Position numbers and translations under genes: made by a program. A DNA stretch of 64,000 bases from Treponema sp. (GTDB lineage: Bacteria; Spirochaetota; Spirochaetia; Treponematales; Breznakiellaceae). Under the pieces are notes generated by a model that did no database searches, had not been told where the DNA came from, and worked only from the letters and a program-made list of their open reading frames with translations. The stretch covers positions 5,355 through 69,354 of the forward strand of contig WQXQ01000001.1 of NCBI GenBank assembly GCA_009784775.1, written 5' to 3'. Shown here piece after piece: positions 23,061-52,298 of this stretch (within the stretch, counting starts at the first letter, position 1; each line of letters opens with the position of its first letter).

Positions 23061-23079
23061 TGTTTTCGCTCCTTAAGAA

Positions 23080-23198
23080 TGGGGAACGGGGACTGGGGAC
23101 TGGGGACTGGGGATAGCTGTTTGTAAGCATAACGTGTTGCTTTTACGCTCAGATTACGAACAACAATCCCTAGTCCCTAGTCCCTAGTCCCCAGTCCC
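23080..23198. repeat. Palindromic MITE/REP-like element with heptamer-repeat arms (GGGGACT)n ... (TAGTCCC)n
   Basis: Inverted arms of tandem 7-mers plus inner TGTTTGTAA/TTACGAACA arms. Flanked by direct repeat TAAGAA at 23074-23079 and 23199-23204. Confidence 0.75.
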
Positions 23199-23208
23199 TA
23201 AGAACTTA

Positions 23209-45023: not shown

Positions 45024-45290
45024 ACCAAATACCTTGATCCCCTCGCCGGGAAATTTTTCTTTCACCGATGCCACCGCCCGCTGAATGGCGCGCGCTTCTT
45101 CTTCCTCGCACCAGATTATCAGGGCGAAATTTTCCTCCGGCCATACAGCGTCACCCATGCGGGGGCCGGTGCTGCCGACCCCAAAAATGCTGGGGTATTT
45201 GGTGTAATACTTGCCAACGTCTGCTTTTGCAAGCGCTTCCAGAATATTTTCCTCAACGGAATGATTGGCGATTATTTCAATACGTATCAT
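45015..45290 (-). CDS. Small PII-like (PG0541-type) transporter-associated protein
   Basis: IEIIANHSVEE...GVGSTGPRMGDAVWPEENF. ATGA-coupled to the RND permease. Confidence 0.75.
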   Translation of the reverse strand: MIRIEIIANHSVEENILEALAKADVGKYYTKYPSIFGVGSTGPRMGDAVWPEENFALIIWCEEEEARAIQRAVASVKEKFPGEGIKVFGLP

Positions 45291-48200
45291 TTTCCAGCCT
45301 CCGTATTATTTTTTATGCGGCCGCCCTGGCCTGCCGCAATCCGTTCACGCCGCGCTTCTGCTTTTGCTTTGCGCAGATCGGAACGTTTATTTATTATTGC
45401 GTAAATCGTCGGCATAAGGAAGAGTGTCATTAAGGTGCCGAATGAGAGCCCTCCCAACACGGTTTTGCTTATGGGCGCCACCAGTTCCGAGCCTTCACCG
45501 GGGAAAAAAGCCATTGGTACCAGCGCAAAGAGGGTGGTAACCGTTGTCATCAGAATGGGACGAAGCCTGTTGCCTGCCGCTTCCACGCAGGCTTCGTGCA
45601 GGGCCATTCCCCGTTTGCGCAGCAGATTGATATAGTCTACAAGCACGATTCCGTTATTCGTCATAATCCCGATAAGGACCAATAATCCTACCAGAGTAAG
45701 CGCGTTGAAAGGTTCATTGGTCATAAGATAGATCAGAACGATACCGATAAAAGAAAGCGGTATGGTAAATATGATGATAAATGGATCTCTGAACGATTCG
45801 AATAAACTTGCCATGGTTCCAAAGTTAAGAAATATAGCCATAACGCAGATAAGCACAAAGCGGGTTAGTAATTTTACCATTTCAGAGTTGGCGCCGCCAT
45901 ATTCAATGAGCACATCATCTTCAACGGGAATTTCCGCTTTCATAAGGGATTCTACCCTTGATTGCAGCGTGTTTATTCTGGCTCCCGGCTTTGCGCTTGC
46001 GGTTACATGAATAACGCGGCTTTGGTTTTCGCGGCGAATGGTAAGCGGTCCGGTGCCTTCTTCGTAATGGACAAAACTTGACAGCGGAATTCGGCCTGCA
46101 ATTTGGCTGTTGATAAAAATGTGATCAAGAGACGGTCTTGTGCTGCGATCTTCTTCCGTGAGAATCAGCAGTACATCGTAGTCTTTGCCGCCCGATTTAT
46201 ATCTGGTAGCGATAACGCCGTCTACCGCAGCCTTAATCTCATTGCCTACGGTGAAGGCATTCAGGCCAAGAGCATACATTTTTTCCCTGTCCAGTATAAT
46301 TTCTATCTGGGGCAGTCCGTCTTTCAGATCCACCTGCGGCTCGGTTACATCGTCAATCCTGTCTTTCAGCAGGGCGGCAATTTTTTCGGCAAGCGCTTTG
46401 CCTTTAACCAGATCATCGGTACGAAGCACAATGTCAACTGCGTTGCCGCCGCCCATCATGTTCATGCCGCTGCCAAAATTGAAAGACACTCCGGGAAAAC
46501 TGTCAAAGTGTTTCCTTAAAATATCCTTGATTTCATCCGAGTCTTCAATGCGATCCGCATATTGGGGAAGTTGTATTTGCAAAGATCCGGAATTGCTGCC
46601 GCCGCCCAATCCAAATATAGGGCCGCCGCCGCCTGCGTTGACAATCAGGCTTTCATAACCTTTGACTTCATTTTTAACGATAATCTCAAGTTGTTTTAAG
46701 ACGGCTTCGGTTTCGTGCAGAGGTGTGCCCATGGGAAGCGTTGCAGTAACGCTTACACTGTCTTCTTTTTGCGGGGGCATGAAAACCCAGCCAACTACCG
46801 GAACCAGAAAAATGCTTACTGCCAGCAAAGCCGTAAGGAAAATAATGAGAACAGCCTTACGCCTGAGTACTTTATCTACTGCGCGGCGGTACTTGTTTTC
46901 CAGCCAAATAAAGAAACGTTCAAATACCGCGTCAATTTTTGCCAGTGTGCCCGTAAGGGGTTTTTGTTTACGGGTAACCAGAGGGAAATACCGGCTGGTA
47001 AGAACCGGCACCAGAAAGAGCGCAGTAACCAAAGAGATTGCCAACGAAATGACAACGGTAAAGGCAAGACCAGAGAACATTTCTCCCGCCATTTCCAATA
47101 AACCCTGAAACATTACCAGCGGCGCAAAAACGCATAACGTGGAGAGGGTAGAAGCGGTAATTGCCATGGTCATTTCCTGGGTGCCGATTATCGAAGCGGT
47201 AGTCAGCTTTGCGCCTTTTTCCCGGTAGTGATAAATTTTTTCCAGAATAATGATGGAGTTATCAATTAACATACCAATTCCCAAAACGAGTCCTGCCATG
47301 GTCATAAGATTAAGGGTAAGCCCCGCAAAGTACATGAGCATTAGGGTAATGATGATGGAAACCGGAATACTGATACCGATTATTATGGTCGGTTTGAATG
47401 AACGAAGAAACAGAAACAGCACAAATACTGCAAGAAATGCGCCCCACATGGCAGAAGATGTTACCTGATTAAGTGAATTTTCGATTATATCGGTTGTGTT
47501 AAAAAGTTCTTTTATTTTGATGTCCGGCGGCAGTTCTTTGGTCATGCGATCCAGCCTGGCACGAAGATCTTTTGCAGCCTGCACTGAGTTTTTGCCGCTT
47601 TGCTTTTGAACGATCATCGTTACGGCAGGTTGTCCGTTTACATATACGGCGCTGGTTTCATCGCGGAAACCTTCGAACACATCGGCAATATCGCGCAAAT
47701 AAATTTGCCGGGGCATCTCTATTTGGGTGCCGGTAAATCCGCCGCCTTTGTAGGAAATGACCGTGTCCCTAATCTGTTCCAGCGAAGTATATTCACCCAT
47801 GGTGGTAAGAATGTAGGACAGATCATTTTCGGTGATGGTTCCTGCGGCAATCTGCATATTCTGGATAGCCAGCATTTGTTGAATTTGCGTGACCGTAAGG
47901 CCATAGGCTTCAAGCCGGTTCTGCGGAATTTCCACCCGGATAATTTTTTCCCGTCCGCCGTTTACCGAAGCGGTAGCGATACCCGGCGTCTGCTCGATCC
48001 GCGGGATGATGGTATCTTCGGCCATTTCACGCAGTTCTTCGGGCGTTCGGTTTCCGGTAATCATCAAACCAACAATGGGAATCATGGATGGATCAAATTT
48101 GAAGATCATCGGCGCGTCTGCATTCGCGGGCATATAGTTTCTAATTCTGTCCAGAGCGTCGCGGACAGACAGGGACGCTTCGGCCAGATCTGAGCCGTAG

Positions 48201-48487
48201 GTAAACTGCATGATTACCATGCTGGTGCCTGATGATGATGTTGACGTCACTTTTTCAAGATTGGATACGCCAGACAGGGTCGCTTCCAGCAGCCGCGAAA
48301 CAGAACGTTCGACTTCTTCGGGACCAGCGCCGCGATAACTGGTATACACCACAAGATACGGAGGGTTAATCTCGGGATACAGATCCACCGGTAAATTAAC
48401 CAGCGCAAAAATACCAAGCCCCATGAGAAGGAAAAAAACAATTAAAACGGTAGTTGGCCTTGATACAACGGTTTTGGCAAGACTCAT
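45287..48487 (-). CDS. RND efflux permease (AcrB/AcrD/AcrF family)
   Basis: LPVDLYPEINPP, GAGPEEVE, GMLIDNSIIILE, RLRPILMTT. 1066 aa. Confidence 0.95.
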   Translation of the reverse strand: MSLAKTVVSRPTTVLIVFFLLMGLGIFALVNLPVDLYPEINPPYLVVYTSYRGAGPEEVERSVSRLLEATLSGVSNLEKVTSTSSSGTSMVIMQFTYGSDLAEASLSVRDALDRIRNYMPANADAPMIFKFDPSMIPIVGLMITGNRTPEELREMAEDTIIPRIEQTPGIATASVNGGREKIIRVEIPQNRLEAYGLTVTQIQQMLAIQNMQIAAGTITENDLSYILTTMGEYTSLEQIRDTVISYKGGGFTGTQIEMPRQIYLRDIADVFEGFRDETSAVYVNGQPAVTMIVQKQSGKNSVQAAKDLRARLDRMTKELPPDIKIKELFNTTDIIENSLNQVTSSAMWGAFLAVFVLFLFLRSFKPTIIIGISIPVSIIITLMLMYFAGLTLNLMTMAGLVLGIGMLIDNSIIILEKIYHYREKGAKLTTASIIGTQEMTMAITASTLSTLCVFAPLVMFQGLLEMAGEMFSGLAFTVVISLAISLVTALFLVPVLTSRYFPLVTRKQKPLTGTLAKIDAVFERFFIWLENKYRRAVDKVLRRKAVLIIFLTALLAVSIFLVPVVGWVFMPPQKEDSVSVTATLPMGTPLHETEAVLKQLEIIVKNEVKGYESLIVNAGGGGPIFGLGGGSNSGSLQIQLPQYADRIEDSDEIKDILRKHFDSFPGVSFNFGSGMNMMGGGNAVDIVLRTDDLVKGKALAEKIAALLKDRIDDVTEPQVDLKDGLPQIEIILDREKMYALGLNAFTVGNEIKAAVDGVIATRYKSGGKDYDVLLILTEEDRSTRPSLDHIFINSQIAGRIPLSSFVHYEEGTGPLTIRRENQSRVIHVTASAKPGARINTLQSRVESLMKAEIPVEDDVLIEYGGANSEMVKLLTRFVLICVMAIFLNFGTMASLFESFRDPFIIIFTIPLSFIGIVLIYLMTNEPFNALTLVGLLVLIGIMTNNGIVLVDYINLLRKRGMALHEACVEAAGNRLRPILMTTVTTLFALVPMAFFPGEGSELVAPISKTVLGGLSFGTLMTLFLMPTIYAIINKRSDLRKAKAEARRERIAAGQGGRIKNNTEAGK

Positions 48488-48488
48488 G

Positions 48489-49574
48489 TCAACCTCCCAG
48501 GGGCGGCGCGCCTATCGGTGCGAGCCGTTCGATAATGTTAACTCTGGAGCCGTCTTCCAGAAGACTCATGCCCCGGATAACAATTTCTTCGTGAGCCTCG
48601 ATTCCCTGATTTACTTCCAGAATGCCGTCGATAAGTATTCCTTGCACAATTGTTCTTTTGCGGACAACTGGATTTTCCGGATCACTGTTGTCTACCGCAA
48701 AAACATAGCGTTCGCCAAAACGGTTGATTACCGCATTGGCCGGAATCTTAACGATATTTTCTTTTTGTTCGGTGATGATCTTTGCCTTGGCGAACATTCC
48801 GGGTTTTAACCTTGACCCGGCATCGCTTACATTGACCCGTACTTCCATGGTACGGGATGCAGGATCAACCGTGGGGGCAAGTTCACTGATGCTGCCCTGA
48901 AAAATCTCGCCGGGCCATGCGTCAAGGGTAATTTCGCACGGCAGATTCATTGCCATCTTGGAGATAAAGCGTTCCGCCACATAGAGCCGTATTTCCAGAG
49001 CGCCGCCTCCGGCAATGCGGGCCAGCGGCACTGCCTGACTGATTGTCATGCCGATCTGGGCTGGTAAAGCCACTACGGTCCCGCTGATGGGAGCGGTTGC
49101 CACACCCCAGCGGAAAGTCATGCCGGGACGCGAAGGATCAACTGCGGCAATCTGCTCGCCCCTGTTTACCCGCTGGCCTACCGCGACATATACCTCGGCC
49201 ACTTTGCCCGCCGCATCGGAATAGACGTCAACCGTGGAACCGGCAATAATGTCACCTGACAACGAGATATAATCCTGAATGGGACCTTTTACCGCAAGCA
49301 TGGTATTGACCGCATATACCGGCGCTTCCAAAACACCTTCCGCCCCGCCGGCCTCTTTCTTACCATACACTTCCCTTATCCGCTCACAACTGGAAAATAT
49401 GAGTATTATTAATAGTAATAATAATAAGATATTACTCGAATTTTCTCTCGCAGAGGCGCAGGGACGCGGAGGCGCGGAGGAATCAAAAAGGTGGGGATCC
49501 GCGTTATTTCTTAATCTTTGCGCTCTCTGCGTCTCCGCGTCTCTGCGAGATTTAATGAGGGATGCTTTTTTCAT
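48489..49574 (-). CDS. RND periplasmic adaptor (MFP) lipoprotein
   Basis: ATG 49574 after AAGGAG. Lipobox FSS-C, GKVAEVYVAVGQRVNRGE, PTVDPASRT, LKPGMFA. Confidence 0.9.
   Translation of the reverse strand: MKKASLIKSRRDAETQRAQRLRNNADPHLFDSSAPPRPCASARENSSNILLLLLLIILIFSSCERIREVYGKKEAGGAEGVLEAPVYAVNTMLAVKGPIQDYISLSGDIIAGSTVDVYSDAAGKVAEVYVAVGQRVNRGEQIAAVDPSRPGMTFRWGVATAPISGTVVALPAQIGMTISQAVPLARIAGGGALEIRLYVAERFISKMAMNLPCEITLDAWPGEIFQGSISELAPTVDPASRTMEVRVNVSDAGSRLKPGMFAKAKIITEQKENIVKIPANAVINRFGERYVFAVDNSDPENPVVRKRTIVQGILIDGILEVNQGIEAHEEIVIRGMSLLEDGSRVNIIERLAPIGAPPLGG
49446..49550. repeat. 105-bp palindromic octamer-repeat element inserted in frame in the MFP signal peptide
   Basis: Terminal 10-bp perfect IR TCTCGCAGAG/CTCTGCGAGA with (A/G)CGC(A/G)GAG-type repeats. 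Encodes exactly 35 codons, SRRDAETQRAQR...SAPPRPCASAR. Confidence 0.8.
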
Positions 49575-49575
49575 A

Positions 49576-51009
49576 TTATTTTCTCTCCTTTGAAGACAAA
49601 GTTCCAAATGGAACTCCTATTGCATATTCAAGGTCCAACAGACCGTTGAGGTAATTAAATTGCTGTTCAAGTAATTGGACGCGGGCTTGTCTAAGGGATT
49701 GCTCCGCATTTTGCACCTGAAAATGATCCTGTAAACCGGCGCGGTAGGCCTGCTCACTTAACTGGTAGGCGCGTTCGGCAAGATTTACCGTTTGCGCCTG
49801 CGCTTCTGCTGTTATCCGCGTCTTATCCAGCGACAGCACCGTATTGTAAATTTCAATTTCAGTGCCCCGAATCATCATTGCAAGGCCTATATTGGCAGTG
49901 GTAATTTGATCATCCCAGTTTTTAATTCCCTGAAAATCAGGGCTAAAGGGAAAAAGGCTGTGCAGCCGTATCCCCAGCGTCATGGTAAGAGCGCCGGATT
50001 TTCGCCACATATCTTTATTGCCCCAGTCGTCTTTCCATGGGTCTCCCATAAAAGCCGGTGTGGTATTCCAGCTTAAATTCAAAAACGGCAGCAGCGATTG
50101 AGCCTGCGCCTTGCGGACGCTCTGCAGCATCAGTATGGTATGCCGCAGTTCCTGAATATCAGGCTTGCCGGAAGCGGCTTTGGAGATCATCTCCTGGACA
50201 TCAAGGGAAATAAAAGCGGTTTCCTGTTCTATTGGTATAAATTCAAAAACGGTGTCGTATGGCAAGCCCAGAAACATGGCAAAGCTGGCCATGGAAAGCC
50301 GCATACCGTTTTCAACTTGATCCATTATGGGTTTCATGTTTTCCACGGCAACCTGCGCCTGCAGGTACACCAGTTCCGGAGCAAGACCGGCATTGAAATT
50401 TGCCCGGGCTATCTGCACCTGTCTTTGGGCATTTTCAAAACTCCCTTGCAGCAGACTGATATTTTCCTGCAAGAGCAGCATATTGTTATACGCTTTGCGT
50501 ATATCCCGCTCAAGCTGTAATTTTGCCTTTTCGTAACCAATTAATCCGCTTTGGTAATCCAGCCGCAGCCGGTTCATGTTTTCAAACATGGCAATACTAA
50601 TCGTAAGCGAAGCCTGTATCGACCCTGCAACATTCCAGCGCGGCGCGTCTACGGAATAAGGGACAACGCCATACAAAGTATTCGGAGGCAAGGGCAGCAC
50701 TGCTCCTGCACCCGGTATAGTGGCAATATCTACCGGAAACAACCCTGTAATCGTATTTACTTCATTATTCAAAATCAAAGTCCCGCTTGCCGTTACGCTG
50801 GGAACAAATTGATTCCATGATAAATCCGATGCCCGTTTTTTGGTACCGCTCGCTATCCGCGCTGTTTCCAGACTCAAATTATTTTTGAGCGCCCTGTCCA
50901 CCGCCTCATCCTGACTCAGCCGCACCGGCGAGCTGCCCGCCTGAGCAAACCCCACCCCACAAACCGCCAAAATTAAAACCAGCATTATTGCTAACTGCCT
51001 ATTTCTCAT
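49576..51009 (-). CDS. TolC family outer-membrane efflux protein
   Basis: Signal peptide, LSQDEAVDRALKNN, AERAYQLSEQAYRAG...LLDLEYAIG, operon context. Confidence 0.88.
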   Translation of the reverse strand: MRNRQLAIMLVLILAVCGVGFAQAGSSPVRLSQDEAVDRALKNNLSLETARIASGTKKRASDLSWNQFVPSVTASGTLILNNEVNTITGLFPVDIATIPGAGAVLPLPPNTLYGVVPYSVDAPRWNVAGSIQASLTISIAMFENMNRLRLDYQSGLIGYEKAKLQLERDIRKAYNNMLLLQENISLLQGSFENAQRQVQIARANFNAGLAPELVYLQAQVAVENMKPIMDQVENGMRLSMASFAMFLGLPYDTVFEFIPIEQETAFISLDVQEMISKAASGKPDIQELRHTILMLQSVRKAQAQSLLPFLNLSWNTTPAFMGDPWKDDWGNKDMWRKSGALTMTLGIRLHSLFPFSPDFQGIKNWDDQITTANIGLAMMIRGTEIEIYNTVLSLDKTRITAEAQAQTVNLAERAYQLSEQAYRAGLQDHFQVQNAEQSLRQARVQLLEQQFNYLNGLLDLEYAIGVPFGTLSSKERK

Positions 51010-51030: not shown

Positions 51031-51058
51031 TCCTCATTCCTCATTCCTCATTCCTCAT
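51031..51058. repeat. Four tandem heptamers (TCCTCAT)4, (ATGAGGA)4 on the coding strand
   Basis: Direct reading. The array straddles the TetR stop codon at 51048-51050. Confidence 0.85.
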
Positions 51059-52298
51059 TTTCCTTAACCCCTATTCCTGATGTTACAAAACGATACAAAA
51101 ACCGAATGTCGCTTTTTGGCACCGTTCCCAATGCCTGCCCCGAGTTTTCCCTCATTAACGTACTAGCGATAAGAAACAAAACCCAGGGAGAGATTCGCCC
51201 TTCTTTAAGTTCACTGAATGGACTATTACACAAAGGTTTTATGGCAATATCTTCAAAAACCCACAAAAATTCATGTTCCGGCCCGTCCATATTGTCTTTT
51301 GCCGGTTTCAGGCTCGGCCGCCGAGTACGGAGCCAATCCAGCGTGATAAGGATATCCGGCTTTGCGCGCAGATACTCGGCTATCGAAAAAATTCCCAGAT
51401 AGAGCTGTTCCTGCGGAATCACAGAATGCTGCATCCCTTGCCGGGCAAAATCAATAATCCGCCGTGACTCGGTCATAAAAAGCTGGTGCAGCATATCCTG
51501 TTTGCTTGCAAAGTGGTAATACAAACTGCTTTTTGATAAACCTGAACGACGGGCAACCTGTTCCATCGATGCTTCCCAGGGGCCTGCTTCGGCCACCGCG
51601 CTGGCCACCGCCTTGAGCAACGGATCATCCTCAAGACTGTTCACCGTCCCTAAAATACGGTTCTCCAGCCCCTCATAATCCAGCGCGTCTATCTCCTCAC
51701 TAATATAACCCAGACCTTGCCCAATAATTACACCAATTGCATTGATTATTTTGCTAATTGCCGCTTCAGACGGCTGTTTTACCAGAGATTCCCCCTTTTT
51801 GTGAAAATCTGCCATGCAAAAAGTGAGTGTTGCAAAGCTCAAACGCATGATTAACGGCTGAATATTATAGGTTTTCTTAATTGAATGGCTGTACAATTCC
51901 AGATCAATACCCCTTTTACGGAATTCTTCGTGCATTTTGGCACTGTTCAGTTCACGATCATGGAGTTTTATCATCGCAAAAATGAAAATATTCACATTTC
52001 GGGCATAATATTCCGCTACAGATCGGGCAAGTATGAAGACTCCCGTACTATTATGCTCGTTTTTCAGGGCTTTTTCATAGCCCGGGCGAACAAAATCGGT
52101 AAAATCATCAAAAAAATGCACGGTCATGGCATCAAGCAGGGCCTGTTTGCTCCTAAAATGGCGGTACAACGCCGGTTTACAGACCTTTAACTCACGGGCT
52201 ACATGGCTGAGACTGGTATTTGCATAAAACTCGCGGCCCCACACTCGAAAAGCCGCATCCATAATTTCTGTCTTTGTCATAAAAATGGTGTCAGTCAC
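51048..52298 (-). CDS. Tandem double TetR/AcrR family regulator
   Basis: Two HTHs: SLSHVARELKVCKPALYRHF and SMEQVARRSGLSKSSLYYHF. Confidence 0.88.
   Translation of the reverse strand: MTDTIFMTKTEIMDAAFRVWGREFYANTSLSHVARELKVCKPALYRHFRSKQALLDAMTVHFFDDFTDFVRPGYEKALKNEHNSTGVFILARSVAEYYARNVNIFIFAMIKLHDRELNSAKMHEEFRKRGIDLELYSHSIKKTYNIQPLIMRLSFATLTFCMADFHKKGESLVKQPSEAAISKIINAIGVIIGQGLGYISEEIDALDYEGLENRILGTVNSLEDDPLLKAVASAVAEAGPWEASMEQVARRSGLSKSSLYYHFASKQDMLHQLFMTESRRIIDFARQGMQHSVIPQEQLYLGIFSIAEYLRAKPDILITLDWLRTRRPSLKPAKDNMDGPEHEFLWVFEDIAIKPLCNSPFSELKEGRISPWVLFLIASTLMRENSGQALGTVPKSDIRFLYRFVTSGIGVKENEE

Follow-up and report, generated by a model that had tools for sequence, protein, structure and literature searches.

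A palindrome in the gene for the periplasmic adaptor (MFP) of a termite-gut Treponema pump was found to belong to a copy of a dispersed hairpin repeat that lies in frame between the start codon and the hydrophobic core of the signal peptide. The gene (48489-49574, minus strand) is part of a TetR-OEP-MFP-RND operon within a 64,000-nucleotide stretch of contig WQXQ01000001.1, here called the window, to which coordinates refer unless a contig of the genome (C1, C4 and so on) is given. The genome, labelled G000, is a metagenome-assembled genome (MAG) of 2.40 Mb in 153 contigs with 48% G+C. The copy is most likely a tolerated passenger, not a regulator. The account we consider probable is that a gene-less copy of the repeat is read through in the MFP leader and is near-neutral, being tolerated since the leader is discarded. 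Such a copy would have landed just past about codon 4 of the MFP gene and would owe its survival to a length divisible by three, a stop-free frame and a position in the one part of the protein that is discarded. Ribosomes would start at the ancestral ATG and read 44 inserted codons, giving a signal peptide with a 48-residue, net-positive n-region. The insert would then be lost on Sec export, when signal peptidase II cuts at Cys63, and the mature adaptor would be unchanged.

Anatomy and reading frame of the MFP copy

The stretch at 49446-49550 is an imperfect palindrome, with arms of 26 nt each (49446-49471 and 49525-49550) that are 85% complementary. When the 181-nt mRNA stretch around it was folded, a free energy of -58.7 kcal/mol was obtained compared to -37.4 ± 3.9 kcal/mol for shuffled sequences (z of -5.5, 0 of 200 shuffles as good). 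As a preliminary description of this DNA had stated, the 105 bp fall on codon boundaries, covering exactly codons 9-43 in a stop-free frame. Conservation among the copies of the family extends about 20 nt beyond the first CGC of each arm, and thus the element is longer than 105 bp (~49429-49567). Both flanks of the MFP copy match the outer inverted repeat of the family, and the nhmmer match for this copy (C1:54777-54927) corresponds to window 49423-49573. The residues SLIK and ENSSN are thus element-derived as well, and the ancestral leader was about MKKA-ILLLLLLIILIFSS-C. With a true insert of ~132 bp, the proposal that removal of 105 bp restores a 28-residue leader (MKKASLIK-…-C) had to be abandoned. 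A strong hairpin placed 24 nt after the start codon was borne out for the 105-bp core; with the full element, the stem starts ~12 nt after it. The features of the copy and its surroundings are as follows.

49446-49550, minus strand: palindromic stretch of 105 bp, codons 9-43 of the MFP gene, from inverted-repeat analysis; frame 0 is stop-free and reads SRRDAETQRAQRLRNNADPHLFDSSAPPRPCASAR
49429-49567, no strand assigned: full element (outer inverted repeat, octamer arm, core, octamer arm, outer inverted repeat), from family conservation; ends ± ~3 nt
49431-49562, minus strand: codons 5-48 (~132 nt, 44 residues), inserted in frame when compared with orthologues, SLIKSRRDAETQRAQRLRNNADPHLFDSSAPPRPCASARENSSN, from the aligned N-termini of 12 orthologues
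49449-49480, plus strand: left arm, four tandem octamers CGCAGAGG CGCAGGGA CGCGGAGG CGCGGAGG, from direct repeats at 8-nt spacing
49481-49515, plus strand: core or loop AATCAAAAAGGTGGGGATCCGCGTTATTTCTTAAT, common to many copies by BLAST and nhmmer
49516-49547, plus strand: right arm, complementary units CTTTGCG CTCTCTGCG TCTCCGCG TCTCTGCG, from inverted-repeat analysis
49386-49430, minus strand: hydrophobic core and lipobox ILLLLLLIILIF-SS-C, codons 49-63, from translation and alignment with orthologues
49572-49574, minus strand: MFP start codon ATG, one base past the OEP stop (TAA-T-ATG)
49585-49590, minus strand: Shine-Dalgarno sequence AAGGAG, 10 nt 5' of the MFP ATG, conserved in orthologues

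Translation of the element was next considered. Orthologues share the GGAG...TAATG start context of the MFP gene and have mostly short leaders, and thus the upstream ATG is taken to be the ancestral start. No in-frame ATG, GTG or TTG is present from this first ATG to the hydrophobic core. Since the ATG and ribosome-binding site align with those of the orthologues and no later start precedes the core, translation must pass through the element, in agreement with the ~48-residue n-region described previously. Only two of the six frames of the MFP copy are open, as are 52 of 204 across 34 full copies of the family, and thus a stop-free state in the frame used would be unlikely without selection. 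Together, the insert length (a multiple of three) and the stop-free frame indicate that this copy came through selection to keep the gene intact.

Counted from the sequence, the predicted n-region of 48 residues includes 10 K/R and 5 D/E for a net charge of ~+5. The positive n-region, hydrophobic core and lipobox cysteine of a lipoprotein signal are all in place, with only the n-region length of 48 atypical. The lipobox reads IFSS-C, and Cys63, the residue predicted to be lipidated, aligns with the invariant Cys of all orthologues. The whole insert lies N-terminal to the predicted signal peptidase II site and so, as expected from lipoprotein biogenesis, would be absent from the mature adaptor. 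The long leader would still be exported and cleaved, and removal with the signal peptide would be the simplest reason for tolerance of the insert. In this way repeat DNA can occupy a working gene without cost to the mature product by sitting in a part that is discarded. New protein sequence, as had been suggested, is present to the extent that the insert lies in the frame of the gene; it is confined to the n-region, however, and adds nothing to the mature pump if the leader is cleaved.

The MFP gene (48489-49574, minus strand) is intact, with 361 codons and a Pfam HlyD_D23 match of 91 bits. Over residues ~45-356 its identity to congeners is 60-73%, and comparison with orthologues revealed no stop. 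Its neighbours in the operon are as follows.

51048-52298, minus strand: first gene of the operon, for a TetR-family regulator (Pfam TetR_N, 88 bits)
49576-51009, minus strand: OEP gene, upstream, for a TolC-like outer-membrane efflux protein (Pfam OEP, 123 bits)
45287-48487, minus strand: RND transporter gene, downstream (Pfam ACR_tran, 763 bits, full length)

Fold energies differed between the strands of the MFP copy, at -67.6 kcal/mol for the plus strand and -51.2 kcal/mol for the mRNA strand. The deficit of 16 kcal/mol for the stem on the mRNA strand relative to the antisense strand is explained by the arm mismatches, four of the five being G·U on the plus strand and A·C on the mRNA. Differences of more than 10 kcal/mol were detected for 12 of 28 family hairpins tested and arise from purine transitions, which produce G·U pairs in one strand but A·C mismatches in its complement. 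No rule behind this asymmetry was found among the 28 hairpins.

The repeat family and its candidate partner gene

Membership of the palindrome in a repeat family, as predicted, was confirmed by a genome-wide search with BLAST and an nhmmer profile, which found 92 loci. Full hairpins account for about 35 of the loci, and single arms for many of the rest. Full copies (n=34) are 125-238 bp in length with inverted arms, each arm built of tandem 8-nt units of the form CRCRRAGG and bordered on its outer side by an A/T-rich inverted repeat of ~17-20 nt. Alignment of 62 element ends gave the end consensus AATTTWTTCSCATTTTTTCA joined to CGCAAAGG, conserved to about -20 from the first CGC. By regular-expression screen, 131 arms were detected, of which 70 pair into 35 hairpins (loops of 10-95 nt) and 61 are unpaired. 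Against Rfam, no family scored above threshold; only plant and animal miRNA hairpin models were listed below it. Two near-identical copies (C49:16650-16791 and C4:37137-37288) have CTCGCAGAGG-type arms around an unrelated core of ~90 nt, and thus arms and cores appear to combine modularly.

We next examined copies within other genes. The in-frame behaviour expected by analogy to the Rickettsia palindromic elements (RPEs) was observed for the same family in MnmE, RibD, Maf, CysS and UvrC, where Pfam domains span or flank the insert. For the S-adenosylmethionine (SAM) methyltransferase and radical-SAM/SPASM genes, the best listed Pfam matches are downstream of the insert.

C100:383-1924, MnmE: residues 355-408 occupied by a family copy
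C10:18728-19984, RibD: residues 275-331 occupied by a family copy
C46:9801-10520, Maf: residues 57-110 occupied by a family copy
C91:6600-8141, CysS: residues 373-397 occupied by a half copy
C40:2916-4949, UvrC: residues 315-348 occupied by a family copy
C26:702-1793, SAM methyltransferase: residues 100-119 occupied by a family copy
C38:14480-16102, radical-SAM/SPASM protein: residues 208-227 occupied by a family copy

The MnmE insert, of ~44 residues, is located between the NKxD and SAK motifs and is absent from all 12 congeners aligned. In three other genes for exported proteins (C4:39607-40185, C10:4517-5998 and C106:3060-4793) the element is directly 5' of the hydrophobic core. Here an in-frame GTG or ATG is contributed by the element itself, from its outer end (GCGTGAAAAAATGGGA or a variant), and KK or a similar pair comes next; in the C4 gene the element also provides a KK n-region. 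Element ends may therefore serve as ready-made leader starts.

Abundance of the arms was compared among 24 congener genomes by counting matches to the pattern TCWCRCRRAGRCRCRRAGRC, with the reversed pattern as control. Arm matches ranged from 0 to 312 per genome, and the control gave 0 everywhere. The highest counts were obtained for G020 (312), G021 (130), G013 (96), G017 (89), G008 (48), the genome analyzed here (37) and G016 (30); 12 of the 24 congeners had 0 or 1 match. This patchy, boom-and-bust abundance is what selfish repeats show.

A gene-carrying form of the family was sought by screening for arm pairs 250-5000 bp apart. No parent insertion sequence (IS) with the same ends was found in this screen. 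At C12:18841-19370, arms of the octamer family were found to bracket a 127-residue gene of the GxxExxY (PD-(D/E)XK-type) nuclease kind that matches TIGR04256 (GxxExxY; 131 bits) and PF13366 (PDDEXK_3; 132 bits). On the right side of this cassette, two successive reverse arms are followed by the outer repeat TGAAAAAATAGCGAG. Of the larger arm-bounded candidates, C16:7818-8707 and C51 proved to be separate arms, leaving the GxxExxY cassette as the only convincing one.

CRCRRAGG arms also bracket GxxExxY genes in G008, G013, G017 (twice) and G021, with only the upstream arm in place for the copy in G020. One of the G017 cassettes ends in TCTCGCAGAG…CTCTGCGAGAG, like the MFP element. Arms around GxxExxY genes of other genomes are spelled ACCACGAAC, TAATCCGY, GACAGGAT and CTCTGGG, and in relatives the genes are mostly located between inverted tandem-unit arms. 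A GxxExxY gene was detected in 7 of 7 genomes with at least 30 arm matches compared to 5 of 21 with none, where gene absences are soft, all compared genomes being MAGs. Hairpins and cassettes have in common GGAAGAGAAAAG, a purine-rich stretch that follows the left arm, and CTTTTCTTCC, which precedes the right arm; this fits hairpins that would be gene-less derivatives. The cassettes are thus probably the gene-carrying form of the family, and by sequence comparison GxxExxY is the best-supported candidate partner among those tested.

A partnership with S23p (PF05635) was rejected: the sole copy in this genome is located between arms that are heptamers and belong to another family, and in the congeners rich in arms nothing scored above the family cut-off. 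This PF05635 (23S-rRNA-IVS/S23p four-helix-bundle) gene, at C54:12800-13230 on the minus strand, has arms (GGGACTG)x4 … (CAGTCCC)x4 and sits within an apparent leuS gene, with flanks …AHDERDWEFAKEYNLPIIQVV and …FTGDGYSINSGLITGLPTAEAKKK…. At window 23074-23204 a heptamer hairpin, (GGGGACT)n … (TAGTCCC)n, has TAAGAA on both sides and the same arm unit as this leuS cassette.

It is quite unlikely that the family is instead a REP/REPIN-type repeat (REP, repetitive extragenic palindrome) mobilised by a Y1 transposase (RAYT-like, IS200-type). This genome has two Y1_Tnp genes (C65:1288-1835 and C22:12926-13531), and each indeed has family arms on both sides. Close Y1 homologues in G022, G009, G012, G011 and G002, however, have no arms nearby, and the Y1 gene is missing from the arm-richest G020 and G021 but present in G011 (no arm match) and G022 (one). 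Unlike Y1, the GxxExxY genes are located exactly between arms in most genomes. Around the C65 gene (C65:1020-2200), ~140 nt comprising the right arm and its flank occur as direct repeats, one on each side of the Y1_Tnp gene, and the arms at C22 (12750-13750) and C16 are accompanied by the palindromic motif GGTGATTGACACC.

The leader site in orthologues and alternative accounts of the insert

Leaders of 34 orthologous MFP genes, including that of this genome, were compared. Most have 17-25 residues and the same Shine-Dalgarno/TAATG start context. The alignment that had been suggested as a way to find an empty allele thus yielded mostly short leaders, and the nearest orthologues (G007 and G009; 72-73% identity) are without the element. 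By contrast, 7 of the 34 have repeat-derived sequence after the start codon and ahead of the hydrophobic core. Leaders of the two nearest orthologues and of the occupied genes are given below.

G007, without element: MNRKVYLILLLAVFIFSGC-ERIKETYGK
G009, without element: MNSKKILVLLLAALSLSGC
G000, this genome: full hairpin
L065: compact hairpin of the same family, MKKHALHNGTQSFTEEKKAKLLLLRVPSCTPW-LVLLLL
G021: single sense arm, …TSRKGAEAQRTRR…
G002: single sense arm, …LHKGTKEQRTQK…
G015: single sense arm, …FEIIHAKARRRR…
G014: single sense arm, …IFSHRQTGSK…
G016: in-frame hairpin of different spelling, (GGGACCA)x4…(GGTCCCC)x4

The leader of G016 (Treponema sp. Th196P3bin148; L040/L058) reads MKTMKLLINRDQGPGTRDQG…PRSPIPGPRS-LFLLFSLF…ASC. 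In a tree of mature MFP parts, from which this genome was left out, the single-arm rows were scattered, with 4 changes for 4 rows and no clustering. A single ancient insertion is not favoured by this scatter of occupied leaders, which indicates repeated gain or loss at the site and not one clean event. Independent occupation of the same codons several times, by hairpins of differing spelling and by single-arm remnants, would imply site-directed insertion or replacement of one hairpin by another. Such targeting might be explained by a resemblance of the element end (GTGAAAAAATGG) to an 'ATG AAA AAA' leader start. That signal-peptide n-regions are recurrent landing sites, or safe harbours, for undescribed hairpin elements of many phyla (with arms of tandem 7-9-nt units and with GxxExxY nuclease genes in their gene-carrying forms) is a tentative extension that we regard as possible, with the balance against it.

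Several points weigh against the reading of the insert as a gene-less passenger copy removed with the leader. No target-site duplication was detected, direct repeats in the flanks having a mean length of 3.71 nt compared to 3.63 ± 0.15 nt for shuffled pairs. The insert boundaries are accurate to ~2 codons, since the closest orthologue is only ~72% identical and provides no precise empty site. The tie between the GxxExxY cassettes and the family is one of association, and the GxxExxY genes of the five genomes with no arm match have other arm spellings or no clear inverted arms. Rule-based callers of lipoproteins and signal peptides expect the lipobox Cys within ~35 residues; Cys63 is outside this range, and export efficiency could thus be impaired. 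Such callers would also miss the MFP protein and similar ones in repeat-rich genomes.

Selection for the hairpin as a regulator is unlikely. By this account a stem starting ~12 nt (full element) or 24 nt (105-bp core) past the start codon throttles translation of MFP and RND, or an RNase III or exonuclease-stop site uncouples OEP from the MFP-RND mRNA. In favour of this account, a strong stem is obtained by folding (-51 to -59 kcal/mol; z of -5.5), its pairing can be lengthened by the flanks at the start codon (as judged by inverted repeat and fold), and the seven occupied leaders include one hairpin of different spelling. The ~92 copies of the family, however, occupy contexts of all kinds, the MnmE, RibD and Maf genes among them, and in four of the occupied orthologues just one arm is left, which is unable to form the hairpin. 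Most orthologues, the nearest included, are without a hairpin, and of the two strands it is the mRNA strand that forms the weaker stem. A lower level of adaptor relative to the outer-membrane channel would also bring no obvious benefit. We infer that the insertion is near-neutral rather than regulatory; the tuning of pump expression or export proposed in the preliminary description was not supported by the contexts, the single-arm orthologues or the weaker stem on the mRNA strand.

Inactivation of the gene is likewise an improbable outcome. Here the 48-residue n-region would block Sec targeting or lipoprotein processing, and the MFP gene would be a young pseudogene that has not yet decayed, as the unusually long leader to Cys63 and a stray Cys inside the insert might suggest. 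Against this, the MFP frame and the neighbouring pump genes are intact, and the arms are ~15% mismatched, so that the copy has some age, and yet its frame has stayed open. Orthologues whose n-region is longer by 10-45 residues are likewise intact, and the net charge of the insert suits an n-region.

A later start, which would place the element in the mRNA 5' leader and begin translation after it at a rare codon (ATC or ATA) to give a minimal signal peptide, is very unlikely. The in-frame GTG or ATG plus KK supplied by element ends in the C4, C10 and C106 genes would favour such a start. The MFP copy, however, has the end variant GCGAGA...AAATTCGAG without GTG or ATG, and no convincing Shine-Dalgarno sequence precedes ATC or ATA. 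The upstream ATG, by contrast, has the conserved Shine-Dalgarno sequence and stop/start coupling with the OEP gene, as in orthologues, and no stop interrupts the frame from it across the element. That the insert is an artefact of assembling a repeat-rich metagenome bin, a concern given the 153 contigs and the presence of family copies at several contig ends, is extremely unlikely, as the copy is internal to a 71-kb contig with both flanks collinear with the orthologous operon, its junctions keep the reading frame exactly, and independent assemblies of other species have the same kind of insert at the same place.

Relation of the family to known repeat systems

RPEs are palindromic repeats found in frame in functional, often housekeeping genes (Ogata et al. 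2000, summarised in a review of miniature inverted-repeat transposable elements, or MITEs, PMC10969869). The Treponema family is similar in being palindromic, roughly 100-150 bp in length and present in many copies, a sizeable share of which are in frame in unrelated genes and would be translated as extra segments. The likeness proposed is one of behaviour, and the host belongs to a different phylum (Spirochaetota). The Treponema arms consist of tandem 8-nt units and not of a conserved peptide-coding module, several frames are used, and the arms also bracket GxxExxY genes. The signal peptide, where the MFP copy is located, is not mentioned as a location in PMC10969869. RPE-like in-frame behaviour is thus extended to spirochaetes. 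Literature searches found no report of such elements in spirochaetes (including searches for Treponema palindromic elements and termite Treponema MITEs) and none of an element copy inside a signal peptide.

The family has the terminal inverted repeats and small size of MITEs. Like the classical examples (Correia, ERIC and Nezha; PMC10969869), it has a high copy number and occasional in-frame fusions to genes. It differs in that no target-site duplication or related IS transposase was found and in that the arms are internally repetitive. REP/REPIN-RAYT systems similarly comprise short dispersed hairpin repeats that are mostly intergenic, lack target-site duplications and have a gene-carrying form bracketed by repeats. 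By contrast to these, the Treponema arms are tandem octamers and not a single 20-40-nt REP with a GTAG head, and the bracketed gene is of the GxxExxY PD-(D/E)XK type and not a Y1 HUH transposase, the link to Y1 not being general.

With four octamers per arm, the MFP copy has the architecture of tandem-unit-armed hairpins (at least 3 inverted units of 7-10 nt around a variable loop). For such hairpins paired with GxxExxY cassettes, which have no published name, the nearest record is the class 1 and class 2 sites of Geobacter metallireducens (2009, PMC2700814). These are paired sites on opposite strands, each of 3-4 tandem octanucleotides at variable spacing, and were given only as putative regulator sites in supplementary figures (PMC2700814). 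Read in reverse complement, their class-2 unit TCTCCGTS becomes SACGGAGA, which is close to the Treponema CACGGAGG and CGCAGAGG units. The Geobacter sites belong to another phylum, and no in-frame coding copies, gene link, mobility or outer A/T-rich inverted repeat was noted for them. No literature was found on the role of GxxExxY proteins or on their link to hairpins. The link of octamer-armed hairpins to GxxExxY gains here a well-resolved case, with discriminating negative tests for S23p and Y1 transposases; if confirmed biochemically, it would assign a function to a large uncharacterised protein family.

The extended signal peptide region (ESPR) of autotransporters is a conserved, selected N-terminal extension of a functional Sec signal peptide with a total of 50-60 residues. 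The MFP leader is similar in its N-terminal extension and in its predicted total of 50-60 residues. By contrast to the ESPR, the MFP extension derives from a repeat, differs from species to species and is missing in most orthologues.

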